Below the pieces are notes generated by a model that was not told the origin of the DNA, searched no databases, and worked only from the letters and a program-made list of their open reading frames with translations. Made by a program: the position numbers and the translations under genes. Shown in pieces: positions 60 to 59,904 of a stretch of DNA of 64,000 bases. This DNA is from a virus. Taxonomy: Duplodnaviria; Heunggongvirae; Uroviricota; Caudoviricetes. Within the stretch, counting starts at the first letter, position 1, and each line of letters opens with the position of its first letter. The stretch lies in the IMG/VR virus record IMGVR_UViG_3300027320_000003, positions 70,192-134,191 of that record. One strand, given 5' to 3'.

Positions 60-839
60 ATGTGCGCAATTCTTAATTGGTGCGGTGAATTACCACCTGG
101 CCTACTGGCTAATCTCCTAGTGGAGATGCAGAGCCGCGGTCGTGATAGCACTGGAATCTCCTGGGTAACCGATACCGGGAAACGTATGCTGCTCAAACAT
201 GACGTTCCAGCGAATGTCTTTGTTGAGAATCAGGCAAAGCACCTGGCGGTTATTGAGAAGAATCGATCCGGTATTGCCCACACTCGCCGAGCCAGCAAAG
301 GTATGCCAGTCAACGTTCAAAACGCCCATCCATTTGCCTATTGCGGATATGTCTTTGCCCACAACGGTATCGTCCAGAACTGGAGGAGCATCCGTGAGAA
401 TTACATTGCCACCTACGTCGATGAGAGTCTGAAGTATGCCAAGAGCATACAGACGGACAGTCTTGTACTCGGACCAATGATTCGTAACAAGGATTTCTCT
501 GAGGCTGTTGGCAGCATGGGTCTCGTCTGGATTTCACCGGATGGTAAGACATGGGCAATGCGAAGCTGCAAGGAACTTGAATCAGTAATGATTGAATGGG
601 AGAGCACTGATTCTACAGTGAAGCATAAAGTTTCCATAGTCTGTAGCACAGTAGACATCGTTTACAACGCAATAGAGGCCACCCACAAGAGCACCGGAAT
701 TGGATATGATGCCAACGGAACCTCAATGGATGAACACGTTCTCTACCGGAACACTGAGGAAGGTATATTGGATTGTGGCGATGTTCCAGTGAACGAGAAG
801 AACAAGGAAGATAACTTCACCAGTGGTAAAGTCGTATGA
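60..839 (+). CDS. class II (Ntn-type) glutamine amidotransferase domain protein
   Basis: N-terminal Met-Cys nucleophile (MCAILNW). RRASKG and NAHPF motifs are typical of Gn_AT_II domains. The 259 aa contain only the amidotransferase domain. Confidence 0.5.
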   Translation: MCAILNWCGELPPGLLANLLVEMQSRGRDSTGISWVTDTGKRMLLKHDVPANVFVENQAKHLAVIEKNRSGIAHTRRASKGMPVNVQNAHPFAYCGYVFAHNGIVQNWRSIRENYIATYVDESLKYAKSIQTDSLVLGPMIRNKDFSEAVGSMGLVWISPDGKTWAMRSCKELESVMIEWESTDSTVKHKVSIVCSTVDIVYNAIEATHKSTGIGYDANGTSMDEHVLYRNTEEGILDCGDVPVNEKNKEDNFTSGKVV

Positions 840-1369
840 GCCTACTGATTACTAGCCGTGGTGTCGAGGTTTCAACCGATGTGTACGTCTACACCTTCTT
901 TATAACCTACTCTCTGCGCTGTGGCGGTGAACCAGAGGAGTACTTCATAAAGAGGTCAGAAACCTCGTGGAATCGATTCGCATCACTAATCAAATCCGAC
1001 CTCAACAAATTGTCGCAGACTGAGCCAGAGGTTGGTCAGATCATCGCAGACTGGCTGATTTCACTCAATGATTGCCGCCATAGCACCCACTCCGGTACCC
1101 GCATTGCGCGTGTCCGTCTAGCGCTCGACCAGCACGGTAAGGAGACGCTATTCAAGGTGATTATGGACGTGTTGACCCTGTTCTTCACGGAGTTTGAGAT
1201 TAAACAGATTAAGAGGCTCGGTGAACCGGCTGAAAAAAGCTACAAATTAATCCAACCAAGGCACAGCTTTCAACTACCGCTAAAAACTTTCGTAAAAGAA
1301 CCTCCATTCCTAGCAGAGGTTACTGACGCAGGATTAGTTCTTGTCCAAGATGAACCTACCACCGCTTGA
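836..1369 (+). CDS. hypothetical protein
   Basis: 177-aa ORF; start overlaps the upstream stop (ATGA). No recognisable motif. Confidence 0.4.
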   Translation: MSLLITSRGVEVSTDVYVYTFFITYSLRCGGEPEEYFIKRSETSWNRFASLIKSDLNKLSQTEPEVGQIIADWLISLNDCRHSTHSGTRIARVRLALDQHGKETLFKVIMDVLTLFFTEFEIKQIKRLGEPAEKSYKLIQPRHSFQLPLKTFVKEPPFLAEVTDAGLVLVQDEPTTA

Positions 1370-5384: not shown

Positions 5385-5416
5385 CTTTCCATTCCCGAGA
5401 ATCGATGTATTCTCCT
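5385..5416 (+). promoter_or_regulatory. conserved promoter-like element, copy 1 (CTTTCCA-N13-ATGTATTCTCCT)
   Basis: Matches the repeated motif. Here it is followed by a 24-nt leader with SD gaaagga before the ATG at 5441. Confidence 0.5.
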
Positions 5417-5440: not shown

Positions 5441-5989
5441 ATGTTAGAAATTAAAACAACAGACGTTCGTCATATTGAATACTACCTCAAACGAAGTAGT
5501 TTCTCCGAGGCTGTAGAGGCCACCGGTACCGTAAACGTCGGTACCGATGTTAAACCGAGCGTAGTTCTCGCGAAGGCGCTCGACCTTACTAAGGCCCTTG
5601 TTAACCATGGTGTTGACAATATTCGTAGTCTCAAGAAGGAGCAGATTCTCAAAGCGTACGCCGCTCTCAACTCTGCTGAAGGATTAACAGTGGTTGCACC
5701 AGCCCCTGTCGCACCAGTGGCACCGCAGGAAGTATCGCAAGACCAGACTGACGTTATTCCACCAGAGATTAGCGATAACACGATCGAAACTATGTCGTTG
5801 CCTGAAGGATCAAACAATGCCCATATCCCACGTGGTACCGCGATTCTAACACTGCTTCTCTCTGCCTATCAACTGGCATCATACGATATTGCAAAATATG
5901 ATAAACGTCCCGAGGCTCAAAATTTGTTGAAAAAGTTAGGAAACTTGTGTTCTGACTACAACCTACTTGCCAACAAAAAACGAAGCTAA
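5441..5989 (+). CDS. hypothetical protein
   Basis: The ORF track begins at 5405, inside the promoter motif. The in-frame ATG at 5441 with an SD is more plausible. Confidence 0.4.
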   Translation: MLEIKTTDVRHIEYYLKRSSFSEAVEATGTVNVGTDVKPSVVLAKALDLTKALVNHGVDNIRSLKKEQILKAYAALNSAEGLTVVAPAPVAPVAPQEVSQDQTDVIPPEISDNTIETMSLPEGSNNAHIPRGTAILTLLLSAYQLASYDIAKYDKRPEAQNLLKKLGNLCSDYNLLANKKRS

Positions 5990-5997
5990 GGAATATA

Positions 5998-7077
5998 ATG
6001 CCACGAGCACGACGTAAGAAGAGTGAAGGACCGGATAGAGAACATATTTTTCCAGCAACGATCGTCACAGATCTAGTGCTCCAGTGGAAACAGGCCATAG
6101 AGGATGGAAGAGACCGCGAGTCTCAATATCTCCTCGAGGATATCATTAAGAAGTCTGAGCAAATGTTTCGCCGATTTGCTCAATACGAAGGTTTTCACCA
6201 TACGGTTGACCTTGACAGCCTTGTTCATAAAGCCAATAGCATGATGCCAAAGTGGCTGACCTATTGGAAACCTAAAAAAGGTAAGTTATTCTCGTGGCTT
6301 GGTAAATGTGCAAAGAACGCGTTTCTTGCCGAGGTTGTAAAGACTAGCCAATACAACAAGCGTTACTTCTCAACCGACGACAGTCTTGAGAAATTCATCG
6401 GTACTGAGGACCACGAGGTTCATCGTCGTGAGGTGGCTAAGAACCACATTGAACGCCTCAAACAACTCACCTCTCGTTGGGCAGACGATCAAATCGTAGA
6501 GTGCATTCGCTACCACATTATCTCTATCTCAGAGAATCCAGAGATCAACAAACGAATTCTCATGCTCTCCGGATCATATGCCAGTGGACTGTCAATTGAC
6601 ATGTCGAAGTGGTGCTATTACTGGAGCCTAGTGTCTCTGCGTGATGCCATGTACGAAAGAGTCATTCCAGGTTACACTGATCAAGATTTGTTCCGAATGC
6701 AACACAGTTACACCTATCTGCCAGACCTGCTTAACATTATTACATGGAAGCAGATGTTGCAGATTGTTGCAGTTATGGGTGGTATGAGAATGAAAGTTCC
6801 TACACTAACCCAGATTCAGGAGACTAAGACTCGATATAATATCCAGAGGCGCATGGTGAGATCTGACCTTGACCCGGATAGTGTCGCAGCAATCGCGAAA
6901 GAATCCGGTGTTAGCCAATTCACCGCCCAAGAGATTTTTGAGCAGATGTCGCAGATGCTTGACGGCAAGAACGGTGGTGAAGTTCCAATCTTTGATGAGA
7001 ACGACACCGAGAGCTACGCCAACATTGGTGGTGTTGATCACAACGCCGCCGATCCTACGGATAGCGACAATCTGTAA
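5998..7077 (+). CDS. hypothetical protein, possibly a divergent sigma-like factor
   Basis: Stop-SD-ATG junction TAAGGAATATAATGCCA. The segment DIIKKSEQMFRRFAQYEGF...LFSWLGKCAKNAFLAEV loosely resembles sigma-70 region 2 (DLIQEG...FSTYATWWIRQAI). This is weak. Confidence 0.35.
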   Translation: MPRARRKKSEGPDREHIFPATIVTDLVLQWKQAIEDGRDRESQYLLEDIIKKSEQMFRRFAQYEGFHHTVDLDSLVHKANSMMPKWLTYWKPKKGKLFSWLGKCAKNAFLAEVVKTSQYNKRYFSTDDSLEKFIGTEDHEVHRREVAKNHIERLKQLTSRWADDQIVECIRYHIISISENPEINKRILMLSGSYASGLSIDMSKWCYYWSLVSLRDAMYERVIPGYTDQDLFRMQHSYTYLPDLLNIITWKQMLQIVAVMGGMRMKVPTLTQIQETKTRYNIQRRMVRSDLDPDSVAAIAKESGVSQFTAQEIFEQMSQMLDGKNGGEVPIFDENDTESYANIGGVDHNAADPTDSDNL

Positions 7078-7084
7078 AATTCTA

Positions 7085-7136
7085 AACAAAATTGTTTGCG
7101 AATGTTTAATTGTTTCAAACAATTTTGTTTACGAAT
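7085..7136. repeat. intergenic direct repeats, each an imperfect palindrome (operator-like)
   Basis: aaacaaaattgtttgcgaat (7085-7104) and aaacaattttgtttacgaat (7117-7136). The 14-nt cores are reverse complements of each other. Lies in the 170-bp gap upstream of the ORF at 7248. Confidence 0.5.
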
Positions 7137-7247
7137 ACTCAATAATAGTTTAAACGTTCTTTGGTCCACCAACATAGACGCTATAACGTCTTATCTCTGA
7201 CTCGCATCAGAGATTCTGTTGAGGCCAAAATATCTGGAGACCAGCCT

Positions 7248-8669
7248 ATGACCGGTTCATTCGTACTCCCAACCAGGGTGCTACTTGCCATAACCACTAA
7301 CCTATCCCCTGAGGATAAACGCGACCGCCCACCAATTGTCGGTGAGATGATGGGTGAGATTATTGGCATGGCCAATAAGACTGCCCATGGTCGCACCTAT
7401 AGTTCATGCGTAATGCTCTCCCATGAGGACATTGTCGGCGATTGCATGCACAAGCTTTCACGCGCCATATCGAGTGGTAAGATCCGCAAGATTCCGAACA
7501 AGGAGGAGGCCTTCTCCTACATCAAGACGATTTTTAATAACCAGGCACGGAGCATGGTCTCCCGCCATATCAAAACCGCTAAGCGCGGATATGATAAAAA
7601 CTCAGAGAATGATCCAAATGTGGTAGGAAGATATAACGATGTCTCTATCCACGACGAGGAGAGCGGCGTTCAAATCCGAGACCACAACGCCTCCATACCT
7701 GGCTGCGATACCTTTCTCGAAGACAACTCAAAATACTTCTCAGCGACTCAGCAACTTATTCTCAGGGAATTTGCTGAGCCGAGTGAGACCTCATTTCTTC
7801 TGGCCTACATGGACGCCGCCGACGCCGGTAGCAAGAAGATTATTATCAAAGACAAACATCGGGCTGAGGCGCTTGGACTTAGCAATAAGGAATTCCGCTG
7901 TCTGCTGGATTCTATACGTAACAAAATAACGGAGATTAAGAAAATGGAAGCAGACCGCAACACGCCACTATACAACCAAGCCATTGGACGGCTTGAAGAG
8001 AAATTTGGAATTCATATCCCTGGCGCATTACCAACAATCAAAGTTCGTCGACTTCTCACGATCGCAGCGCGTGATCAATACCAAAAATTAGACAAGCCAT
8101 CATTAGACGATCTTCGTACGGTTGGTGCTCGTCTACCTGAGCTTCGTCCTGACGAACGACTGGCCTGCTTCGCAGTTCTCTACGCTAAGAATGATCGTAC
8201 CTGCCAAGTCTGTAGTCTTCGTAATAGCTGCATGGTTGAGGCAGCGAATGTTGGACTTGGTAACATCACCATTAGTCAACGTCTCCTTGGTGCCCGACAA
8301 ACCCGCATCCCAAGTATTATTGTTGGTGATGACAACGATGGTTCACTCGTGACTGGCAAGGATGAAGGTATCTATAGCCATCTCCACCACGTTTGCGACA
8401 GATACGAAGCAAACAAAAAAGAGTTTCAATTCAAACACCGCGACGTCGAAGGTAGTCGCAGTGTTATCTTTGCGGTGTCGGTAAAGCCTAAGTTCCGGTT
8501 GCAATTTGTTAACCCGAGCGAAAACCTCAAGGGATTGCTTATCGAAGAGAACGGCCTCCATTATCCATCCCATGACGCCAGCACTGAGTCAGTTATCGAT
8601 ATGATTGATCAACACGTAAATGAGGTCTACGAGAATTATATTGAATCACTTGACCTGAGCGAAGCATGA
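7248..8669 (+). CDS. hypothetical protein, possibly a divergent sigma-like factor
   Basis: The track starts at a TTG at 7161; the ATG at 7248 is more plausible. EEAFSYIKTIFNNQARSMVSRH resembles sigma region 2.3-2.4. Contains a Cys cluster CQVCSLRNSC. Confidence 0.35.
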   Translation: MTGSFVLPTRVLLAITTNLSPEDKRDRPPIVGEMMGEIIGMANKTAHGRTYSSCVMLSHEDIVGDCMHKLSRAISSGKIRKIPNKEEAFSYIKTIFNNQARSMVSRHIKTAKRGYDKNSENDPNVVGRYNDVSIHDEESGVQIRDHNASIPGCDTFLEDNSKYFSATQQLILREFAEPSETSFLLAYMDAADAGSKKIIIKDKHRAEALGLSNKEFRCLLDSIRNKITEIKKMEADRNTPLYNQAIGRLEEKFGIHIPGALPTIKVRRLLTIAARDQYQKLDKPSLDDLRTVGARLPELRPDERLACFAVLYAKNDRTCQVCSLRNSCMVEAANVGLGNITISQRLLGARQTRIPSIIVGDDNDGSLVTGKDEGIYSHLHHVCDRYEANKKEFQFKHRDVEGSRSVIFAVSVKPKFRLQFVNPSENLKGLLIEENGLHYPSHDASTESVIDMIDQHVNEVYENYIESLDLSEA

Positions 8670-10248: not shown

Positions 10249-10986
10249 TTAGTGCCTGTACAGGTCTAGGATTTTAGACTCTAGATCTTTCAGCAGGCCG
10301 TCATGCATTTGTGAATCTAGGTCGGTTAGTTCATTAAATTTGATGGTGTCTACTCCGCCAGCGTTCTTTTCTACGCTTAGAGTACCATAGGCCTTTTCAA
10401 TTTCAACCGCTGTTCCACCTTCCTCAAAGGACACGTTCCATTCAGCGGTAACACCGCCTTCAACGTAATCCTCTCCGGAGGAGAACGCGAGGTTGAATGA
10501 TTGCAATTTTTCCATGAGAAGCGCCTCAGCTAGTCGTCTGGCTGGGCTAATAGGCCTAGAGGATTCAGCGACCACGGCTCCATCGGCCGAGGCGCTGTGA
10601 ATTAACGCCTGGTACTTCTCATCGAAAACATTCTCGAAACCTTGCTGCTCAAACGCTCCCTTATCAGAAAACTCCCGATTGTCAAACCAATCGTTAAACT
10701 CTTGGATGCTCGTAACACCACGCAGGTCAGCGATATCATTTTCAAACACGCCGAATAGAGGCTCTAACCCACCGGACGCGTTGGCAATTTCCTGCAAGGT
10801 GTCCTCGTCCAGTTCCATCCGTAATTCGCCGGCAACGTCATAATCCTCAGATAGGATCTTGAAACTTAATGCTGCCCAACCATCCTTAGAATCACCGACG
10901 CGCGTGATATCGCTAGTGAAACCTAGCACCTGGAAAGGAATTCCGCCTATTGAGAACGACACCGGCATGCGCAATCTTCTTGTCAT
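10249..10986 (-). CDS. hypothetical protein
   Basis: 245-aa ORF co-directional with 9342-10238. Confidence 0.4.
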   Translation of the reverse strand: MTRRLRMPVSFSIGGIPFQVLGFTSDITRVGDSKDGWAALSFKILSEDYDVAGELRMELDEDTLQEIANASGGLEPLFGVFENDIADLRGVTSIQEFNDWFDNREFSDKGAFEQQGFENVFDEKYQALIHSASADGAVVAESSRPISPARRLAEALLMEKLQSFNLAFSSGEDYVEGGVTAEWNVSFEEGGTAVEIEKAYGTLSVEKNAGGVDTIKFNELTDLDSQMHDGLLKDLESKILDLYRH

Positions 10987-11017
10987 GGTATAACTATTGC
11001 GGAACGATAGTTAACAT

Positions 11018-20468: not shown

Positions 20469-20503
20469 CTTTCCACCGTATCAATATCGTGTATTTTACT
20501 CCT
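20469..20503 (+). promoter_or_regulatory. conserved promoter-like element, copy 2
   Basis: CTTTCCA-N13-GTGTATTTTACTCCT, in the divergent gap between the helicase and the gene at 20556. Followed by a roughly 50-nt leader containing the palindrome ccaagcgtggcttgg. Confidence 0.5.
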
Positions 20504-20555
20504 TAACCAAGGAGTTCCAAGCGTGGCTTGGGCATCCGCAAAGAGTAATTAATCT

Positions 20556-21065
20556 ATGAAATCGCCTCAAAAAAGCAAAGACCTGATCAACTTCCTATTT
20601 GGCACAAGCCAACAAGAATCACTCGAGGAAGCACAGGGTGAAGATATGGTGAAGATTTTTGAGGATATCGACGTTCTCGAGTTTTACGAAAACCATGTTG
20701 ACGACTTATTTAAAGCTCTCAAATCCGTCGGAGTCGTCCTCAAGAAGGAGGATATCGAAGTCACTCCAACTGGCCTGAAGGTCTGTGATAGAAACATCAC
20801 AAAGCTCCTCAATGATCCTGAGAAGTTCGGTAAGATTCTCGAGCTTGGATATGTTCCTGTGCACTCCGTAGTTGACACGGAAGATAATTACCTCTTTATC
20901 TGCAATACTGAGAAGGATTTGGACGAGAAAGAATCGAAGGCAGCTGACATTGATCGCGCCCTAAACGTCACCGATGAGGAGTACAAGAAACTCCGCAAGA
21001 GCAAAAACGTTGATGTCGATATCGAGAAACTCGTCGATCAGATGATCAAGGATGAGGGTAAATAA
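20556..21065 (+). CDS. hypothetical acidic protein
   Basis: 169-aa ORF. Confidence 0.4.
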   Translation: MKSPQKSKDLINFLFGTSQQESLEEAQGEDMVKIFEDIDVLEFYENHVDDLFKALKSVGVVLKKEDIEVTPTGLKVCDRNITKLLNDPEKFGKILELGYVPVHSVVDTEDNYLFICNTEKDLDEKESKAADIDRALNVTDEEYKKLRKSKNVDVDIEKLVDQMIKDEGK

Positions 21066-21567
21066 GATGAGCCGCTCCTACGAGGATCTCGCCTATATCT
21101 CCCAGCGCCGATACGATTGTCGCCTATTAGAGGCATACCGCGGCACGGACATTGTCTCCTGGCACGGTATGATTGAACGCCAACTCGTTGGGATGCTTCA
21201 AGACGCTGAGGCTGGCGGTAACTCACCAAACGCTGACAAACTCCGTGAATTTCTTAAAACGTGGCGCGACAATCCAATCTCTGGTAGTATCAACGTCGAG
21301 GATCTTGACACGCTTCTAGCCGCTACGTCCCAGCTCGCTGTTGATAACTGGAAGTTGAGCACATACTTTATCGGTCTACGTGATAACCTACGTAAGATCA
21401 TCGCAAGTGAAGAGGAAATGCCACGCGGTGATAACATTATGGATGAGCCGTCGGTTCGTAGAGGTATCAATAAGGCACCAACGACACCGTTTAATGCGCA
21501 GAAAGACGCGCCTCCAGAGCCGGCCGTGCCAGAGACTCCGGCGCCGGGCACTGAACCGGTTATTTAA
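21052..21567 (+). CDS. hypothetical protein
   Basis: 171-aa ORF. Confidence 0.4.
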   Translation: MRVNKMSRSYEDLAYISQRRYDCRLLEAYRGTDIVSWHGMIERQLVGMLQDAEAGGNSPNADKLREFLKTWRDNPISGSINVEDLDTLLAATSQLAVDNWKLSTYFIGLRDNLRKIIASEEEMPRGDNIMDEPSVRRGINKAPTTPFNAQKDAPPEPAVPETPAPGTEPVI

Positions 21568-21570
21568 TAG

Positions 21571-21608
21571 CTTTCCAACGGGCACCGGCGGTGTATTCTA
21601 CCACCATG
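21571..21608 (+). promoter_or_regulatory. conserved promoter-like element, copy 3 (fused to the ligase ATG)
   Basis: CTTTCCA-N13-GTGTATTCTACCACC-ATG. Confidence 0.55.
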
Positions 21609-22718
21609 ACACCCGTAAACTCCGACGTCGTCCAATCTCTTAAAGATCAGCTCCTCCAATGGGATCACGAGTATTACACTCTTAGCTATCCCACCGTCAC
21701 AGACGCTGAATACGATCGCGTAAAGAAGGAGTACATCTCCTTGACCGGTGACACCGCTGTCCGTGGTCGTGCTGATTCAGGCAAGAAACAGAGGCACAAG
21801 GTTCCAATGCTCAGCCTGTCGAACGTTTTCTCCGAGGCTGAAATCCACCAATTTTTTAGCAAATATGACCTCGAGAACGAGGAATGGACGGCGGAGTACA
21901 AGGTTGACGGTCTTAGCCTCAGTCTCATCTATGAACATGGCAAGCTGACAAAGGCGATTACCCGTGGCGACGGTGTTACGGGTGACGACGTTACCGCCAA
22001 CGCCATGAATTTTGTTCCAAGGATAGTCGAGGAATTAGCCGAAGATTCTTATGCTGAGATTCGTGGTGAGGTTATTATCCCACGTTCCACCTTTAAGAAG
22101 CTAAATGAAACTCTCGTTGAATCCGGTGAAGAGCCGTTTGCCAACGCTCGTAATGCCGCCTCCGGTAGCCTCAAGTTGAAGGATGCTAGCGAGTCCAAGA
22201 AACGTGGATTACAGTTCATCTCCTACCGATTTATCGTTGACGACTACGCTGACCTACTGACACATGGCGACGAGATTAGTGCCTTGAAGGCCTACGGTTT
22301 CACCACTGTTGACACAGGATCAATTGAATCACTGATCGCTAATAGAGACAGTATCGACTACGATACTGATGGTCTGGTGATTAAGATTAAATTTCTTGAG
22401 GACCAACAAAAAGCTGGTGATGCCAACGGTTATCCAAAGTGGGCATGTGCCTATAAACTCCCACAGCCAAGAGTTACCACCATACTTCTTGACATCGTGC
22501 TCACCGTTGGTCGTACCGGCCAGATTACTCCTAATGCAGTGCTCAAGCCGGTACAGTTGGATGGTAGCCGCGTTAAGGCCGCGAGTCTTTGCAACCAAGA
22601 TGAGATCGACCGACTTGGAATCGACATCGGCGATACAGTCATCATTGAGAAGGCCTGTGCTATTATTCCAAAAATCGTTGGAAGAGTGAATACTGCGGGT
22701 GTGTCTGAGGTTCTGTAG
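21606..22718 (+). CDS. ligA: NAD-dependent DNA ligase (short LigA-like, no BRCT region)
   Basis: EYKVDGLSLSLIYEHGKLTKAITRGDGVTGDDVT matches the LigA adenylation segment (KxDG...RGDG). The N-terminal Ia-like segment LLQWDHEYYTLSYPTVTDAEYDRV is the NAD-specificity domain. Start set at the ATG at 21606; the track start at 21591 is the GTG inside the promoter motif. Confidence 0.8.
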   Translation: MTPVNSDVVQSLKDQLLQWDHEYYTLSYPTVTDAEYDRVKKEYISLTGDTAVRGRADSGKKQRHKVPMLSLSNVFSEAEIHQFFSKYDLENEEWTAEYKVDGLSLSLIYEHGKLTKAITRGDGVTGDDVTANAMNFVPRIVEELAEDSYAEIRGEVIIPRSTFKKLNETLVESGEEPFANARNAASGSLKLKDASESKKRGLQFISYRFIVDDYADLLTHGDEISALKAYGFTTVDTGSIESLIANRDSIDYDTDGLVIKIKFLEDQQKAGDANGYPKWACAYKLPQPRVTTILLDIVLTVGRTGQITPNAVLKPVQLDGSRVKAASLCNQDEIDRLGIDIGDTVIIEKACAIIPKIVGRVNTAGVSEVL

Positions 22719-29121: not shown

Positions 29122-29150
29122 CTTTCCAACCGTCAACCGTGGTGTAATCT
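29122..29150 (+). promoter_or_regulatory. conserved promoter-like element, copy 4 (no ATG)
   Basis: CTTTCCA-N13-GGTGTAATCT. The predicted start site falls at the first base of a structured GC-rich element. Confidence 0.45.
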
Positions 29151-29156
29151 TTAGAA

Positions 29157-29275
29157 CTTGGGCGGTGCAGTCGTGGTGAGTTAATCCACGCGGCCTAGCG
29201 GCTTGCATACCGCAGGATTGAGGAGCAGAGAAGCGCGAATCCGAGCTCCGTGCAGTGCAAACCTGCCACCGCCCA
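29157..29275 (+). ncRNA. candidate structured noncoding RNA or leader
   Basis: Long-range stem gggcggtgcag (29160-29170) pairs with ctgccaccgccc (29263-29274) and encloses at least three internal hairpins: cgtgg/ccacg, cctagcgg/ccgcagg and ggagc/gctcc. No ORF. Begins about 7 nt after the promoter copy. Confidence 0.3.
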
Positions 29276-29291
29276 CCTCTATAGTTAAGAT

Positions 29292-30103: not shown

Positions 30104-30140
30104 CTTTCCACAGCTCACCGGTCGTGTATTCTCCTACATG
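30104..30140 (+). promoter_or_regulatory. conserved promoter-like element, copy 5 (fused to ATG)
   Basis: CTTTCCA-cagctcaccggtc-GTGTATTCTCCT-ac-ATG. Confidence 0.55.
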
Positions 30141-32573: not shown

Positions 32574-32610
32574 CTTTCCACAGCGCACGGTGCGTGTATT
32601 CTCCTGTATG
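32574..32610 (+). promoter_or_regulatory. conserved promoter-like element, copy 6 (fused to ATG)
   Basis: CTTTCCA-cagcgcacggtgc-GTGTATTCTCCT-gt-ATG. Confidence 0.55.
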
Positions 32611-36383: not shown

Positions 36384-36415
36384 CTTTCCACTCAAGAATA
36401 ACCGTGTATTCTCCT
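36384..36415 (+). promoter_or_regulatory. conserved promoter-like element, copy 7
   Basis: CTTTCCA-ctcaagaataacc-GTGTATTCTCCT, followed by a 33-nt leader with SD aaaggaa before the ATG at 36451. Confidence 0.5.
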
Positions 36416-36450: not shown

Positions 36451-36927
36451 ATGAAAGCAATCGTAATTCGCAGTAAACGTGGAACATGGACAAGTAAGTC
36501 TTGCCGTGAGCTCCTTAACATCCGTGCAAACCAATCCGTCTATGTGATCGGACCAGACGGACAACTCATTGTAACCATTAAAAAAGCACCGGGTGAGGCC
36601 AGTCGCACTATGAATGCCGCTCTCAAGCACCTTAACGGCACCTCAATGATCGCCCTTGACCGTGATGTCATGCGTTCTATCGGCGTAGTGCCTGGTGATA
36701 TCGTAAAAGTTTCCGAGGAGCAAGAAATTCAGGCTGTTGACGTTGAGACCTACACGTCTGATCGCGAACGTCCAACGACACTCGCCCAACGCCTCGCTGA
36801 GATGACGGTAGGTGCCCATATGGTTCTCACGGCTTCCCAGTATAAGAGTAGCATCTACAAAGCAGCGAAAGATGCCGGTGTCGAGTTCACTAAACTCGGT
36901 AACAACACCATCAAAATTGTTGGTTGA
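36451..36927 (+). CDS. hypothetical protein
   Basis: 158-aa ORF. Confidence 0.45.
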   Translation: MKAIVIRSKRGTWTSKSCRELLNIRANQSVYVIGPDGQLIVTIKKAPGEASRTMNAALKHLNGTSMIALDRDVMRSIGVVPGDIVKVSEEQEIQAVDVETYTSDRERPTTLAQRLAEMTVGAHMVLTASQYKSSIYKAAKDAGVEFTKLGNNTIKIVG

Positions 36928-36943: not shown

Positions 36944-36987
36944 TCTCCTCCGTGGTTGGCTGAGACTTGCCGGTCTCAACATGTATT
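36944..36987 (+). terminator. possible hairpin terminator
   Basis: 12-bp stem ccggcaagtctc/gagacttgccgg with a 14-nt loop. The downstream U-tract is weak. Confidence 0.3.
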
Positions 36988-38202: not shown

Positions 38203-41200
38203 CTAGTGCTTGACAAGTTTCTTCATCCCGGCCGATATGTCATCCCAGTCAACATTTCTCTTAGGAACCTTTACGGCGTCCATATAGTTGTAACCAACTT
38301 CGTGGTCACAGTCAAATGGAACGATACACCACGAGGTGTCAAAACCAGGTACAAGAGTTGATATAACATCAGGCATGTTCTTAAACACCGAGTCACAAAT
38401 CTCGTGCACCTGTGGTAACTCGTCAGTAATGGCGTCGATAACCAAGGAATCATGCACCGTGCATATCAACTTACTCTCGAGCTGGTAGTCCTCCATTAAC
38501 CGTTCGATGGCGATGAGCGAGAACAGCATCATATCCGAGGCAGTTGACTGAATGAGATGGTTATACCCGGATCGCAGGGCCTTATTGATCCTCTGCTTAT
38601 CATCTGAAAATACTTCCTCGAATATCCGGACACGGCCTGTGATACTGACTGCGCAACCGTTATCCTGCACAAATCTCTTGTAATGACCAATGTGCGTCTT
38701 GAGATCTGGATACGCCGCAAAGAAATTCTCAAGCAGTTTCTCACATTCATCTAGCTGGAGATAGACACCAGCCAAAGCGCAGGCGCTCTGAAAACCAAGA
38801 GCACCGCCGCCGTATCCAGTAAGAAAGTTTAGGATTTTACCAAGCTTACGTTTACCAGCCAGTTTCTTAACCTCGTCAGCTTTGCCGTTCTTCTGTAACC
38901 AAATCTGGTGATCGTCGGAGAAGGTTTCGTACGGTATGTTAAACACGAGGCTAGTGGTTTGGCTATGCAGATCCACGTCGTCAACATACGCCTTAACCAT
39001 TGCACTATCACCGCATGCTGCGGCAAGTAGCCGTAATTCAATCTGTGAAAGATCGCTCTGAAATATGCAACCACGTTCCTTAAACCTTGAGCTGTATAGT
39101 CTCTTAATACCACCACTCTCGCGCGGAATTTGCTGCAAGTTTGGATTGGTGTTATGGTTAATGAAACCTTGGGCGACGTAGCTATTATCCTCCTCGACGT
39201 GCATGTCATGAACTGTCTCATACCCAACCATGTCTTTGCTTACGATGGTGTCATGACCGCCGTTGGCGTTAGATGCAATCTTGACAATGTCACCGATGTC
39301 TAGGTCTAGGAGATAGCTCCAACCGCTTGGAGTTAAAAATCTATGACCACTCGTGGCCTTGATGATGTAACCACGGCTCGTTATTACCCGGTACATGGTT
39401 GCCTTTGGTTTAACAACGTGGCACAGGATGCGTTGCCAGTGACCGGTATGGGTCTGAATCCGTGTGTTGCGGTACTTTGCGAGCACCTTGCCTAGATCCT
39501 TAATTCTAACGCGAATGTTTGTGAACCCGTTGACCTGCAGGTTTAAAACTGTGTCAGCTGACACGCAGCACGATAATCTACCACCTCGAGTACCGGTGAG
39601 CTTAAAGCTGGCATGTACGCAACCATCATCCATGAGAAGTTGCTGCGCTGTGCGGTCCTTCTTATCAACACCGGCGATGCTAAGGTTACGCATTGGTCTA
39701 ATATAGGAGCTATAGGCCTTGCGCAACTTGCGGTAATTGATCAATGGGCGCACCTGTGGATAACCAACACTAAGGTTGTTTAGGGTGAATTTGTCCATGG
39801 AAGCAAATTCAATTCGCTGATCCATCGGTATCTGGTCGATTGGAACGCCCTTAAAACGTTTATCACCTGCCTCCGTGAGAGTGTTTACTGGGCATTGGAG
39901 AAGGTTAAAGAGAATAGTTCGTAGCTGTTTCTTATCCTCTACATCAAGTTCCCAATCCGGGTTATTAACCTTCTGTATCTTAACCCATCGATCAATCTGC
40001 GGGTCGCTCTCCTGCAACTCCTTAATGGCATTACGAATTAGATCTGGGGACGCGACTTCCTGGCGGGTTAATTCGTCGACGTCAACGTGCATGCCGCGCG
40101 CCATCATACGGGCTAGAGTATCGCCAGCTGGTCGCATCAAGCAATCATATACTAACTTACGACTCGGCGGAGAGTACAGCCGGTATGCACCACGATTCTC
40201 CGTATGGGCCAATGGTATGCGGTATGTTTTGGCCAGCTCCAAGCGTTTGTCAATGCCTTCGCAGGCCTCCCAACAAACCTCAACGTCACCCATCACATAC
40301 GGTTTAAACGCGGTATCCCAATATTCTTTTGGGCAATTGGCGTAGTGACCACCGCTGTCTGGGTGTAGGAGCTCCGGATATTTGTCGATGAGCATTGTCA
40401 TGCGCTCCTCGTACCCCGCTAGTGTCGGTGCCCAGTCGTAGGCAATAACCTCGAGTCCCATGCTACCGGTCTCCTGTCTCCAAATGTACCGCATGTGCCA
40501 ACTATCCTGCCAAAAAGCACTACAGATCTTCTCAATGTAATCTCTACCTCCAGGCAGTGTGCCAATCACGAACAGGATATCGAAAGTAAGATTATGCCCA
40601 CGCAGCTTACTCGCCGACAGGGCCCGCAAAATAAACGGTGATAGATAGGCAACAAACTCCTTCAACGGGCTACCTTCGTAATCCCATGCCCAACCAACGC
40701 TGCGGTCAGTTCCATCCAGTTCATTCCACCGGAACATAAAATAAACAATCTTGTTTCCGTTTTTAAACGGATGTAGGCCTGTCGTTTCAGTATCAAAACT
40801 AAGCAATGTTCCTGGGTTGTCAATAAGATACTGGCATGATTCTCTTACGGCCTCAGGGTCCTCTGTTAGGATCCACCACGGACGATCATACTCGTAGGTC
40901 TCAACTCCGCCAGCCTTCGCTATCGCCGCTGCCTTAACAAATGCATCATTCCACCGTTTCACGGAGATCTGGTTGGCAAAGGTAAAGACGATCTTTGGGC
41001 TTTGAATCGCCAGAATAGGAATCTGTGTCTCGCCGGATGGACGATCACCGAGTATTGGATGACCACCATCGTAGGTCTTAGAGATCAAAAAATCGTCTGG
41101 CCAACCTCGCCAATTAAGGATACGACCATTCCAGTCCTGCGCGTTGGATTTAATATTCAGCAAACCGAGCACGTTGGAACCAACTGCCATAACAAGGGCT

Positions 41201-41697
41201 GGCGGATGATCGCGAAGCTCCTTCGTAAGAAATAGACGGCAATATCTACCCGCAGACTTAGCCGATTTCTTAAGATCGCCTGGGAAGCAGCGGGTGATAG
41301 GGGCAATGCGGACGGTGTCCTCAAACTTAAGACCTAGCTTCGTAAGGTGCGGCGAGAGCGTCTTTCGTAGGAAACTATTGACACCCTTATCCTGTCCAAT
41401 ACGGCCGTTCTCATCCTCGGATTGGCTGGGACCCTCAGTTATGATAGTGATCAACGGTCTGTCTGGCCCTACTGGCTCAAGATATTTTGACCGACAATTA
41501 GAGGCGAATAGCGCACATTTCCTGCACACTGGATTATCAGGTCCTGGCTTGAAATCAGCACCAGATGCGATTAACTCCTTAGCCTCGCGCTCATATTTCT
41601 GAAACGGAGACTTTTCTTTCTTGACCTTCTCGGTCTTAGCTCGAGCTTTTCGCGGCTTCTTTTCTATCGTGGCGTCTAATTGTAATTCTTCCATCAT
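38203..41697 (-). CDS. family A DNA polymerase with N-terminal UDG-like domain and 3'-5' exonuclease, interrupted by a mini-intein
   Basis: Exonuclease motif FDTETTGL. Pol A motif A DLSQIELR, motif B RKLGKILNFLTGYGGG and motif C VHDSLVID. LTGTRGGRLS-[intein]-TNPNLQQIP corresponds to the conserved RLSS..PNLQNIP segment. The N-terminus has a family-4 UDG-like CxxC plus GEGPG-like ITIITEGPSQSEDENGRIGQ...SFL. Confidence 0.85.
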   Translation of the reverse strand: MMEELQLDATIEKKPRKARAKTEKVKKEKSPFQKYEREAKELIASGADFKPGPDNPVCRKCALFASNCRSKYLEPVGPDRPLITIITEGPSQSEDENGRIGQDKGVNSFLRKTLSPHLTKLGLKFEDTVRIAPITRCFPGDLKKSAKSAGRYCRLFLTKELRDHPPALVMAVGSNVLGLLNIKSNAQDWNGRILNWRGWPDDFLISKTYDGGHPILGDRPSGETQIPILAIQSPKIVFTFANQISVKRWNDAFVKAAAIAKAGGVETYEYDRPWWILTEDPEAVRESCQYLIDNPGTLLSFDTETTGLHPFKNGNKIVYFMFRWNELDGTDRSVGWAWDYEGSPLKEFVAYLSPFILRALSASKLRGHNLTFDILFVIGTLPGGRDYIEKICSAFWQDSWHMRYIWRQETGSMGLEVIAYDWAPTLAGYEERMTMLIDKYPELLHPDSGGHYANCPKEYWDTAFKPYVMGDVEVCWEACEGIDKRLELAKTYRIPLAHTENRGAYRLYSPPSRKLVYDCLMRPAGDTLARMMARGMHVDVDELTRQEVASPDLIRNAIKELQESDPQIDRWVKIQKVNNPDWELDVEDKKQLRTILFNLLQCPVNTLTEAGDKRFKGVPIDQIPMDQRIEFASMDKFTLNNLSVGYPQVRPLINYRKLRKAYSSYIRPMRNLSIAGVDKKDRTAQQLLMDDGCVHASFKLTGTRGGRLSCCVSADTVLNLQVNGFTNIRVRIKDLGKVLAKYRNTRIQTHTGHWQRILCHVVKPKATMYRVITSRGYIIKATSGHRFLTPSGWSYLLDLDIGDIVKIASNANGGHDTIVSKDMVGYETVHDMHVEEDNSYVAQGFINHNTNPNLQQIPRESGGIKRLYSSRFKERGCIFQSDLSQIELRLLAAACGDSAMVKAYVDDVDLHSQTTSLVFNIPYETFSDDHQIWLQKNGKADEVKKLAGKRKLGKILNFLTGYGGGALGFQSACALAGVYLQLDECEKLLENFFAAYPDLKTHIGHYKRFVQDNGCAVSITGRVRIFEEVFSDDKQRINKALRSGYNHLIQSTASDMMLFSLIAIERLMEDYQLESKLICTVHDSLVIDAITDELPQVHEICDSVFKNMPDVISTLVPGFDTSWCIVPFDCDHEVGYNYMDAVKVPKRNVDWDDISAGMKKLVKH
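39151..39567 (-). mobile_element. mini-intein (Hint domain, 139 aa, no endonuclease domain) inside the polymerase gene
   Basis: Begins CVSADTVL (block A). Contains block B THTGH. Ends VAQGFINHN, followed by Thr as the +1 residue. Removing it restores the contiguous Pol A motif GRLSC-TNPNLQQIP. Confidence 0.65.
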
Positions 41698-44112: not shown

Positions 44113-44138
44113 CAAGTCACAATTTAGTTAAGGGCAGC

Positions 44139-44888
44139 ATGACATATTTAAGCAACGATTCGGTGTTAGACCTGGTAGATAGGGTGTCGACCGGGTGTGC
44201 CGATAGCCGCAATCGACTTATTCTCAATTACTATCCGGCCGGTTTCCATATCGCTCACCGTGTAAACAACTACACGAACATCATGGACGTCTCAGACCTA
44301 GCAGCGAGTGCGCATTACGGATTAATCAAAGCGGTTGATAGTGGTACGTATGACAGAACCAAGGCGGTCTTTACCACATGGGTCTATACATGCATGGAAC
44401 GGCAGGTCTATACTGACATGCACCGGTTCAGCAGAATCACGCGGGTTGATGCGGTTAGTTCTCAGCTAGCCACAAACATTCGACAATTCCGAGATGACTT
44501 CCGCGAGAAGCATGGGCGAGTTGCCACAGAGGATGAGGTTTGTGCCGCCTTCGGAGTTACACGGCGTAAGCTGAGAACAATGACACTCGTACCTACGAGA
44601 TGCTCCATCGATGTTATCGACACTATGGTTGATGCAAAGCTGGAAACTCCGAGCGTTGGGCCCGATGTCATTCAGTTGGAGTATATGCATGCGGCGATAT
44701 CAAATCTGCGACCACGTGATCGTCACATCATCTGTTCCTACTACGGAGTTCAGGGACGATCACGTATGACCATGAGTCAAATCGCACAGGAATTAGGTAT
44801 TGTTCGCCAAGGCGTAGGTCAGCACGTTGCGCGTATTGAAAAACATCTACAAGCGTCAATGAAGGCGATTAAACAGGCATTGGAGTAA
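44139..44888 (+). CDS. sigma-70-family RNA polymerase sigma factor
   Basis: Region 2-like segment VFTTWVYTCMERQVY. Region 4 HTH MSQIAQELGIVRQGVGQHVARIEK. 249 aa. Confidence 0.7.
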   Translation: MTYLSNDSVLDLVDRVSTGCADSRNRLILNYYPAGFHIAHRVNNYTNIMDVSDLAASAHYGLIKAVDSGTYDRTKAVFTTWVYTCMERQVYTDMHRFSRITRVDAVSSQLATNIRQFRDDFREKHGRVATEDEVCAAFGVTRRKLRTMTLVPTRCSIDVIDTMVDAKLETPSVGPDVIQLEYMHAAISNLRPRDRHIICSYYGVQGRSRMTMSQIAQELGIVRQGVGQHVARIEKHLQASMKAIKQALE

Positions 44889-44890
44889 CT

Positions 44891-45115
44891 ATGGAAAAAT
44901 ATGGTACGCATTTCACTCATTATGGCTGGTTTCTATTCTGCCCTATTCTTGGCTTCTATGATGAAGATGATGGCGAATTCAATATGGCACCACGCTTCCT
45001 AATCCTCGAACCACTGCTATGGTTGGCCGAGGAGGTGCAACACCTGTTCAACACGATTCATGAGGAGGAGAACGTTGGCTTCTACGTGTGGATTATGCCG
45101 TTCCAGCCGAAGTAA
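44891..45115 (+). CDS. hypothetical protein
   Basis: 74-aa ORF. Confidence 0.3.
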   Translation: MEKYGTHFTHYGWFLFCPILGFYDEDDGEFNMAPRFLILEPLLWLAEEVQHLFNTIHEEENVGFYVWIMPFQPK

Positions 45116-45359
45116 AGGCTAACGGTACAATTCTGTATGGTACATGCGCCCTATCTAGTAGCCCGCCAAGTTGCTTGCAAACCTCGTGTTCATGCACGTA
45201 GGCTAGGGCTTGTCCCTTCTCGGAGACCTCTTCCATGATCCTATCCAGAATGGTTGAATTAAAGCTACACCGGTCAAAACCTATGAGTACCGAAGCTGGT
45301 ATCGTTGAGTCAATATTCTCTTTTGGATCTAACAGGATAAGCTCGTAGATGTCGTCCAT
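45093..45359 (-). CDS. hypothetical protein
   Basis: 88-aa minus-strand ORF. Confidence 0.3.
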   Translation of the reverse strand: MDDIYELILLDPKENIDSTIPASVLIGFDRCSFNSTILDRIMEEVSEKGQALAYVHEHEVCKQLGGLLDRAHVPYRIVPLAFTSAGTA

Positions 45360-45762
45360 ATTAGAAAATACACCAAAAACGGAAAAAGGAAAGCAGAAAT
45401 CACCTATTTTGTGCTGCGTGAAGTTTTGCCGCCGCAGGCATGCACCGCGTTCTAGGAGATGTTACACCTGCTTGTCCAGGAGACACAAGGAGCTTAACCC
45501 AATCGCGTACAGATTCAATATCGCCAAGCAGAGTGCGAAGTCACGCGGTATAGCCTGGGAGCTCACGATTGACCAATACACCGATTTTTGTGTTAGAACT
45601 GGTTACCTTGAAGGTTCAGGTAAAACGCGGCAGAGTCTTACCATAGACCGAATTGATCCAACACATGGGTATAGGGAGGATAACATCCGTTGCATACCAC
45701 ATTGGATGAATGATAGGCTTGGTGCTATCTATGGCGCGTATATGAGGCTAAACGGAAAGTAA
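45349..45762 (+). CDS. putative HNH-family homing-endonuclease-like protein with N-terminal zinc finger
   Basis: TIDRIDPTHGYREDNIRCIPHWMN resembles an HNH core (xIDHIxP..GG...NL..LC..CH). N-terminal CCVKFC...CYTC cluster. Confidence 0.4.
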   Translation: MSSILENTPKTEKGKQKSPILCCVKFCRRRHAPRSRRCYTCLSRRHKELNPIAYRFNIAKQSAKSRGIAWELTIDQYTDFCVRTGYLEGSGKTRQSLTIDRIDPTHGYREDNIRCIPHWMNDRLGAIYGAYMRLNGK

Positions 45763-47015: not shown

Positions 47016-47048
47016 GGTGCACGCGCTCACCGTAATTCTAGATGAATG
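47016..47048 (+). promoter_or_regulatory. partial copy of the promoter-like element (-10-like half only)
   Basis: ggggcggtgcacgcgctCACCGTAATTCTAGATG. Lacks CTTTCCA. Shares gggcggtgca with the element at 29160. Confidence 0.3.
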
Positions 47049-57786: not shown

Positions 57787-57824
57787 CTTTCCAAAGACCG
57801 TTAACCGTGTAATCTACTCGTATG
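57787..57824 (+). promoter_or_regulatory. conserved promoter-like element, copy 8 (fused to ATG)
   Basis: CTTTCCA-aagaccgttaacc-GTGTAATCTACT-cgt-ATG. Confidence 0.5.
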
Positions 57825-58661: not shown

Positions 58662-58698
58662 CTTTCCACCGTGCACCGTGCGTGTATTCTCCTCTATG
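58662..58698 (+). promoter_or_regulatory. conserved promoter-like element, copy 9 (fused to ATG)
   Basis: CTTTCCA-ccgtgcaccgtgc-GTGTATTCTCCT-ct-ATG. Confidence 0.55.
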
Positions 58699-59867: not shown

Positions 59868-59904
59868 CTTTCCACCGTGCACCGTGTGTGTATTCTCCTA
59901 TATG
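59868..59904 (+). promoter_or_regulatory. conserved promoter-like element, copy 10 (fused to ATG)
   Basis: CTTTCCA-ccgtgcaccgtgt-GTGTATTCTCCT-at-ATG. Nearly identical to copy 9. Confidence 0.55.

Follow-up and report, generated by a model that had tools for sequence, protein, structure and literature searches.

A short intergenic element, CTTTCCA-N13-GTG-TATTCT, recurs through a 64,000-nucleotide (nt) stretch of DNA from a tailed phage (positions 70,192 to 134,191 of IMG/VR virus record IMGVR_UViG_3300027320_000003; this whole 64-kb stretch is called the window here), and most of its copies abut the ATG of a gene. Our preferred reading is that the element represents the main two-box promoter class of the sigma-70-family type in this phage, that it would produce mostly leaderless mRNAs and, as a weak lean, that it may be read by the phage sigma factor encoded at 44139-44888; the probability of this reading as a whole is put at about 45%. 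The window has a G+C content (GC) of 48% and is part of a contig of ~144 kb from an uncultured T4-like (T4-distant) myovirus of an estuarine or freshwater, mesophilic metagenome (JGI 3300009026, Logan SRR5468224, ENA ERZ27246579). Motif counts cover ~89 of the ~144 kb, namely the window and ~25 kb of flanking sequence in three pieces (L030, L027 and L020), the last being an IMG/VR match from the window's own JGI sample (3300009026) that was treated as a further piece of the same genome.

Within the window the motif occurs 11 times, with 10 copies on the plus strand and one on the minus strand, against a chance expectation of 0. A search for CTTTCCA-N13-GTGTATTCTCCT allowing up to 3 mismatches returned nine matches, all on the plus strand (5385, 20469, 21571, 30104, 32574, 36384, 57787, 58662 and 59868), and the same search gave 0 matches in 100 shuffles; the site at 29122, CTTTCCA-N13-GTGTAATCT, is a weaker yet genuine copy. 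These are the plus-strand positions at which an earlier note on this DNA had placed the repeat, and the 13-nt spacer that it described as invariable was recovered as well, with 18 matches at 13 nt versus 0-1 at every other gap from 9 to 18 nt. Other parts of that description needed revision. The element is not always on the plus strand: the copy at 45393..45362 is fused to a minus-strand open reading frame (ORF), and the element therefore follows the orientation of the gene that it serves. The supposed half-copy at 47016 has no CTTTCCA box, carries TAnnnT in another register and is not a member of the class; the count of seven start-fused copies in the window is right only with the minus-strand copy in its place. 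A position matrix, as had been proposed, added the minus-strand copy in the window, and seven further copies lie in the flanks (L030 1096, 2231, 6133 (weak), 6528 and 9044; L027 10598; L020 919, minus strand), bringing the total in this genome to at least 18.

The copies in the window are listed below, with distances counted from the end of the TAnnnT hexamer to the ATG.

30104-30140 (motif 30104-30135), plus strand: the copy first flagged, CTTTCCA-N13-GTG-TATTCT-cctac, fused at 5 nt to the ATG at 30138 of a 233-amino-acid (aa) ORF.
21571-21608, plus strand: copy at the NAD-dependent DNA ligase gene (adenylation and OB domains), ATG at 21606, 6 nt after the hexamer.
32574-32610, plus strand: copy at the gene of an HD-domain protein, ATG at 32608, 5 nt; its spacer holds the palindrome GCACgGTGC.
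57787-57824, plus strand: copy with hexamer TAATCT, 6 nt before the ATG at 57822 of a 126-aa ORF.
58662-58698, plus strand: copy at a 93-aa ORF, ATG at 58696, 5 nt.
59868-59904, plus strand: copy at the gene of a 332-aa NTPase-like protein (phrog_1250), ATG at 59902, 5 nt.
45357-45393 (motif 45393..45362), minus strand: CTTTCCT-N13-GTGTATTTT-ctaat-ATG (GTG-TATTTT), ATG at 45359 of an 88-aa ORF (45093-45359).
5385-5416, plus strand: leadered copy, 27 nt to the ATG, Shine-Dalgarno (SD) sequence AAGGA; heads the operon 5441-5989 / 5998-7077 / 7248-8669.
36384-36415, plus strand: leadered copy, 38 nt to the ATG, SD AAGGA; gene 36451-36927.
20469-20500, plus strand: leadered copy with hexamer TATTTT, intergenic between divergent genes, 58 nt to the ATG of gene 20556-21065.
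29122-29153, plus strand: weaker leadered copy with hexamer TAATCT, 141 nt to the ATG of gene 29292; a ~140-nt non-coding stretch follows, then TAGTTA-agat-ATG.

Alignment of the 18 copies bore out the proposed sigma-70-type anatomy: a -35-like TTTCCA, within cTTTCCA, lies 16 nt from a TAnnnT -10 hexamer in every copy, with a G at -13. Invariant in all 18 are T2, C5 and C6 of the box, G-13, and T-12, A-11 and T-7 of the hexamer; hexamer positions 3-5 vary (usually TATTCT, elsewhere TAATCT, TATTTT, TATCCT or TACTCT). The three bases after the hexamer are CCT in 10/18 copies and ACT, ACC, CCC, CTC, AGC, TTA or CTA in the others, and the strict conservation of CTCCT claimed earlier was overstated. 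All copies are intergenic, lying directly past the preceding stop codon or within divergent regions, in the orientation of their gene. Because the hexamer shows the invariant and variable positions of TAnnnT, the box sits at exactly 16 nt, and the copies are intergenic and oriented with their genes, the identification of the element as a sigma-70-family-type promoter is well supported. A generic sigma-70 consensus scan of the window showed no enrichment (27 found, 25.5 expected), and the canonical TTGACx-TAnnnT pairs in the window lie almost all inside genes, none of them at a gene start.

The relation to gene starts is equally regular. The ATG lies 5 or 6 nt past the hexamer in 10 copies (21571, 30104, 32574, 45393 on the minus strand, 57787, 58662, 59868, L030 6528, L030 9044 and L027 10598); for a further two, L030 1096 and L030 2231, the distances are 7 and 9 nt. 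Six copies are leadered (5385, 36384, 20469, 29122, L020 919 on the minus strand and the weak L030 6133), with an SD of their own wherever the next gene is clear. As the earlier note had observed, the fused starts, all of them ATG, have no SD, and AAGGA-type SDs stand at a stereotyped distance before many other genes. The base before the fused ATG is C or T in 10/10 copies. Either coding potential is positive in the frame of the fused ORF, as it is for every fused copy in the window, or the ATG is used by public gene calls; the ligase start at 21606 leaves space for domain Ia, and orthologs in a relative, the L052 contig described below, align from residues 1-2, in agreement with the fused ATGs as true starts. 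The GTG starts placed inside the motif by the ORF track are artefacts, as suspected, and a plus-strand ORF that another pipeline calls across the 88-aa minus-strand ORF has a coding score near zero. An ATG at a fixed 5-6 nt, opening real ORFs in 10 copies, implies selection on exact placement. Counted from the hexamer, the A of the fused ATG falls on the 6th or 7th base, behind a pyrimidine, which is where sigma-70-type polymerases prefer to start. A transcription start on this A, giving a leaderless mRNA, is well supported, if unproven.

Two other accounts of the conserved block were rejected. The motif occurs in two reading frames relative to the ATG, and after in-frame stops, which excludes a conserved N-terminal peptide, and a minus-strand ribosome-binding site (AGGAG on the opposite strand) is not followed by a conserved start codon.

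Some copies carry additional features. Those at 58662 and 59868 are identical at 31/32 positions, spacer included, and the assemblies of two pipelines break between them. The spacer palindrome GCACnGTGC, found in a subset of copies (58669-58681, 59875-59887, 32581-32593 and L027 10605-10617), could be an operator or a trace of copy-to-copy recombination. Non-coding leaders of ~130-140 nt follow two copies (window 29154-29282, plus strand; L020 about 760-885, minus strand); the one behind 29122 has a 9-base-pair closing stem (GGGCGGTGC...CACCGCCC), no match in Rfam and a folding energy within the ordinary range (z = -1.35). Behind the 20469 copy, the leader (20509-20552) contains AAGGAG and then a GTG mini-ORF of 9 codons, which stops 3 nt short of the ATG of 20556. 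The NAD-dependent DNA ligase is apparently split into two genes ~47 kb apart, 21606-22718 on the plus strand (adenylation and OB domains) and L027 10633-11451 (HHH and BRCT domains), each start-fused to a motif copy; one relative encodes a single 667-aa ligase.

Relatives were fetched through homologs of the protein encoded at 5998-7077 (n=53, 36-52% identity). The most informative was L052, a 148-kb contig of 47% GC with 51% identity in a core protein and the same gene order (SSB, UvsX, a small gene, the 5998 homolog and the 7248 homolog). It holds five copies of CTTTAC(A/G)-N13-(A/G)CG-TAnnnT, and 4/5 have the ATG of a called gene at 6-9 nt. Three of them precede orthologs of genes that here carry the motif or lie downstream of it in an operon: a 310-aa amidoligase-like gene (42% identity; the copy here is L030 9044), a 168-aa gene (30% identity; start-fused CTTTACA-type copy there, leadered copy 36384 here) and a GGACT gene, which here lies within the operon behind L030 6528. 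Both the position and the architecture of the class are therefore conserved. One box position, invariant within each phage, differs between them in every copy, with C here (CTTTCCA) and A in L052 (CTTTACA).

More distant relatives (L057, L059, L060 and L065) have TTGACx-16/17-TAnnnT-N6-ATG, for example TTGACG-17-TACATT-gtagcc-ATG and TTGACA-17-TACAGT-gccgtt-ATG. An unbiased word count at positions fixed relative to TAnnnT-N5-8-ATG sites returned TTTCCA here, TTTACA in L052 and TTGAC in L057 and L060, and nothing clear in the other ~20 loci; in the structural regions of three relatives, repeat finding turned up nothing comparable to the two-box motif. When IMG/VR (16 specified bases) and metagenome contigs (19 bases) were scanned for the exact motif, the yield was, besides L020, single unrelated chance matches, and these collections therefore hold no close relative with the same box. 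Since the relatives carry start-fused promoters with TTGACx or TTTACA boxes, start-fused two-box promoters are, as read from these sequences, a trait of the lineage, of which this phage has a private version of the box.

The earlier note had named three candidate readers of the motif, a sigma factor at 44139 and sigma-like proteins at 5998 and 7248, and the first of these was examined as a possible partner of the box.

44139-44888, plus strand: sigma-70-family factor with regions 2-4 (TIGR02937, 4e-16; Sigma70_r2 and Sigma70_r4), candidate reader of the motif.

This protein is a genuine sigma-70-family factor, which among solved structures matches WhiG, SigA and RpoD best, over regions 2-4, and its gene is the only recognisable conventional sigma gene in the window. 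Its recognition helix (ivRQgvGQhv, aligned with VTRERIRQIE of RpoD by HMMER at low identity) keeps R584 and has Q in place of E585 and G in place of R588. In sigma-70, R584 reads -31 and E585 and R588 govern -33, and the substitution E585Q itself relaxes specificity at -33 (PMC2613000). The motif keeps C at -31 in 18/18 copies and departs from TTGACA at -33 and -32. Because region 4.2 may suit the box in this way, which at such low identity is suggestive, CTTTCCA-N13-TAnnnT is the only conserved two-box motif seen, and the 44139 gene has no motif copy upstream, we lean weakly towards the phage sigma as the candidate reader.

Several observations weigh against, or qualify, this assignment and the leaderless start that accompanies it. 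Promoter activity and start site are both predictions from the sequence. Where 5 nt separate hexamer and ATG, initiation on the A would use the 6th base past the hexamer, close to the lower limit of normal spacing, and the G two bases on may be the start instead. Identity in the region 4.2 alignment is low, and these residues differ in other alternative sigmas too. A word-indexed search for homologs of 44139 returned only the protein itself, and an exhaustive search of 1.8 billion representative proteins gave matches of at most 36% identity, full-length ones of ~30% or less. One homolog candidate, P0007, lies on a 1.7-kb contig and is uninformative, and in the relatives L061 and L069-71, represented by loci only, no sigma gene lies next to DnaB. 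The boxes of the relatives (TTGACx, TTTACA) resemble ordinary primary-sigma -35 elements, and T4 early promoters, which are read by host sigma-70, likewise have a GTTTAC-type -35.

That a dedicated phage factor reads the element, as the earlier note had suggested, is not established; distant relatives use ordinary TTGACx boxes in the same geometry, and for this reason the host primary sigma is a serious alternative. Anatomy and leaderless outcome would be unchanged, the element would be read as T4 early promoters are, and 44139 would serve another class. We regard this as nearly as likely as a reading by the phage sigma. The -10 is a canonical TAnnnT with T-12, A-11 and T-7 invariant, the boxes form a graded series in identical geometry from TTGACx (L057, L059, L060, L065) through TTTACA (L052) to TTTCCA here, and the genes served have early-type functions. 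Moreover, a phage needs some promoters usable by the unmodified host enzyme, and there is no canonical TTGACA/TATAAT class at gene starts in the window, so the motif could be the host-read class. Against this, nearly all copies of TTTCCA are off TTGACA at -33 and -32, and no copy has TATAAT in place of TATTCT; the box has changed in concert across all copies between the two related phages, which is easier with a fast-evolving phage factor than with conserved primary-sigma residues; region 4.2 of 44139 is altered at residues that read -33; and other -10-like elements of this genome (GTATTTA and GTAATTA/C, described below) could be the host-read class instead.

The remaining explanations fit less of the evidence. 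An invariant box, unlike TTGACA, beside an ordinary TAnnnT -10 would suit a phage activator bound to CTTTCCA, as in T4 middle promoters (MotA box plus sigma-70 -10), and this T4-distant lineage, with its UvsX, topoisomerase II, gp55-like sigma and sheath, has many proteins without assigned function. However, no MotA or AsiA family match was found among the 77 window proteins (Pfam, PHROG), and the box stands 16 nt from the hexamer, in the classic place of a -35, where relatives carry a true TTGACx. We consider an activator improbable, together with the variant in which the gp55-like 5998 protein reads the motif: the 5998 gene lies behind a motif copy, so that its product must be made before it can act, and it is kept in relatives that lack this box. 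An RNA element, either a pyrimidine-rich non-SD translation enhancer or a processing site in long transcripts with the ATG as an internal start, seems more doubtful still. Most copies do lie inside co-directional gene arrays, only the 21571 copy having a recognisable upstream terminator (a terminator-like hairpin just 5' of it, at 21543-21560), and the conserved parts are pyrimidine-rich (CUUUCC, UAUUCUCCU), with CUCCU resembling an anti-SD. But the six leadered copies, with SDs of their own 25-140 nt downstream, indicate that the element is not a translation signal, and two boxes at a strict 13-nt gap are not what an RNA element would need; the TAnnnT invariance pattern, the pyrimidine at -1 and the TTGACx and TAnnnT that relatives hold at these places would also go unexplained. 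Just as remote, in our estimate, is a promoter that starts a few bases upstream of or inside the ATG, giving short-leadered or non-coding RNAs, or one served by a phage RNA polymerase from the rest of the genome. The commonest subclass has the A no farther away than the 6th base, and the G of the ATG (8th base, after T) could plausibly serve as the start too; the scan covers ~89 of the ~144 kb, which leaves room for a polymerase gene in the other ~55 kb. Yet the spacing to the ATG is held at 5-6 nt in 10 copies, with real ORFs behind it, no RNA polymerase family match was found among the 77 window proteins, and a two-box TAnnnT promoter is typical of sigma and not of a single-subunit polymerase.

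A second transcription factor appears to be encoded behind one of the leadered copies.

5998-7077, plus strand: lineage-conserved, highly divergent sigma-like protein, recognised by fold only, behind the 5385 copy.

The structural model of this protein (30 homologs; predicted local distance difference test, pLDDT, 77) is all-helical with three domains; its best fold matches are sigma factors including T4 gp55, and the N-terminal domain matches T4 gp55 and sigma domain 2. Sequence searches gave only a weak match to a "late transcriptional activator" PHROG, and a profile comparison of the 5998 family with the 44139 sigma found no sequence similarity. Half of the suggestion that 5998 is a sigma-like reader of the motif is thus borne out, in that the modelled fold resembles gp55, but the protein pairs better with a different element, TAGTTA. 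For the 7248 protein, also proposed to be sigma-like, sequence searches gave nothing, and no sign of such a character was found. The gene is preceded by a 170-nt AT-rich intergenic region (7078-7247) with a direct repeat (CAAAATTGTTTGCGAAT / CAATTTTGTTTACGAAT) and a GTTTAC...TAGTTT pair.

TAGTTA lies 4-8 nt before the start codons at 10986 (minus strand), 11018, 29292 and 44139 (all plus), at 10991-10996 (minus), 11008-11013, 29282-29287 and 44125-44130 (plus), so that it also precedes the 44139 sigma gene; it is found in L032, L035, L055, L060, L065, L067 and others as well. In the loci of 22 relatives, 27/49 occurrences (55%) fall 3-9 nt before the ATG or GTG of a long ORF, compared with 6.3% for composition-matched hexamers. 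The gp55-like factor and this -10-only element adjoining structural genes look like a late system, the pairing of the two being our conjecture. The 31-nt divergent gap 10987-11017 holds two opposed TAGTTA elements. Other short elements also stand just 5' of gene starts: GTATTTA at 36983 and 57077 (plus) and 38176 and 46484 (minus), with at least 4/5 occurrences intergenic and gene-oriented; GTAATTA/C at 20545, 41682, 47032 and 53313 (plus); and ATTCTAG at 47035, 58963 and 62358 (plus). These may be -10-only promoter classes.

Put together, these elements suggest how the system might work. Host-read promoters would express early genes first, the DnaB-sigma operon among them. The CTTTCCA-16-TATTCT sites would be next, with polymerase brought there by the 44139 sigma (in the rival model, by that of the host), and initiation on the A of AUG would produce leaderless mRNAs for non-structural genes, namely those of the ligase (both halves), the HD hydrolase, amidoligases, the NTPase and small ORFs. 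The same class would express the gp55-like factor from the leadered 5385 operon, and this factor would in turn switch on the TAGTTA genes. Because the 5385 copy heads the operon with the gp55-like 5998 gene, we infer that the motif class acts before late transcription, a conditional placement like those of the start site and of the sigma. Because the fused genes lack an SD, with the previous stop 35-55 nt upstream, read-through RNA would be translated poorly and their output would be tied to the firing of their own promoter. If this is true, omission of the SD makes translation conditional on that firing and gates the temporal programme at two levels. A broader version, in which start-abutting promoters support leaderless expression of much of the genome across the lineage (33-68% GC) and, in this phage, within a three-step cascade of host sigma, a private 44139 with a co-evolved box, and an enlarged gp55-like 5998 reading TAGTTA, we hold to be rather unlikely.

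Class-specific phage promoters and leaderless phage mRNAs are already known in kind; what is new is their occurrence in this lineage. The closest layout is that of Thermus phages. In phiYS40, as described in a review and a later preprint, most middle and late transcripts are leaderless, with the 5' end at the initiator codon, and the -10 elements are class-specific. In Lalka27a the temporal classes have their own TAnnnT variants (late TAGGGT), 5' ends lie six nt after the hexamer and most transcripts begin at the A or G of the initiator codon; for the late class, which is ascribed to modified host polymerase, no -35 is reported, only a C conserved at -25, and the early and middle classes follow host TTGACA/TAxxxT. 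The phage studied here shares with both the TAnnnT variants, the leaderless layout, dense promoters and few terminators between co-directional genes, in our case as predictions from DNA. It differs from the Lalka27a late class in its strict 7-nt upstream box, the fixed gap, phage-encoded sigma factors, the many SD genes in its genome and its estuarine, mesophilic source.

Phage sigma-read promoters are exemplified by SPO1 gp28 and gp33/34, phiEco32 gp36 and T4 gp55. As in those systems, a phage sigma gene is accompanied by a repeated, phage-specific consensus on the coding strand that would define a temporal class, the link between 44139 and the motif being putative here. T4 gp55 late promoters have no -35, and to our knowledge the promoters of all these systems give leadered, SD-dependent mRNAs. 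T4 early promoters and PeSL cassettes place many near-identical strong promoters, with a TTTAC-like -35, before small early genes. The near-identical spacers seen here (58662 versus 59868) likewise suggest spread or homogenisation by recombination. T4 early transcripts, however, are leadered and PeSLs include a stem-loop, whereas here the promoter lies directly against the ATG, and a short spacer palindrome is confined to a subset of copies. T4 middle promoters also combine a non-canonical upstream box with an ordinary -10 before pre-late genes, but the MotA box is centred at about -30, ~12 base pairs from the -10, and the box here is at the classic -35 distance. Lambda cI is leaderless when transcribed from PRM. 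In Actinobacteria and in Deinococcus-Thermus, where this host pattern is common, a -10 adjoins, at a short fixed distance, an ORF that has no SD and whose initiator codon is the 5' end (PMC12340547, PMC4633059). Those cases are host or single-gene ones, use the primary sigma and usually have little or no -35, in contrast to the phage-wide, stereotyped two-box class described here.

The analysis offers a testable regulatory map for a lineage represented only in metagenomes, with a pre-late class, a candidate private sigma and a gp55-like late sigma with its candidate element, and it would mean that promoters fused to start codons also occur outside the phages of Thermus or actinobacteria. For annotation, gene callers misplace starts at GTGs inside the motif, and a promoter-aware model would correct starts in the lineage. 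The same single-base box difference in every copy makes L052 and this phage a natural experiment in promoter/sigma co-evolution.

Close relatives are missing among cultured phages: megablast with an 8-kb query gave no match to them, and the tail sheath is at most 26% identical to that of any deposited phage. Metagenomes hold relatives with sheath identities of 35-48% and GC of 33-68%. Searches of the window for tRNAs and Rfam families found nothing. Its recognisable proteins include a family A DNA polymerase with an intein, a DnaB-like helicase, a UvsX-like recombinase, both topoisomerase II subunits, NAD-salvage enzymes, glucosyltransferases, a tail sheath and a tail tube. The polymerase (38203-41697, minus strand) carries the intein at residues 747-849 (Pfam Intein_splicing) and an N-terminal uracil-DNA glycosylase (UDG)-like domain. 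Divergent gene pairs with overlapping or near-touching start codons occur at 41696/41697, 45349-45359 and 10987-11017; at the first of these the minus-strand ATG of the DNA polymerase overlaps a plus-strand ATG at 41696.

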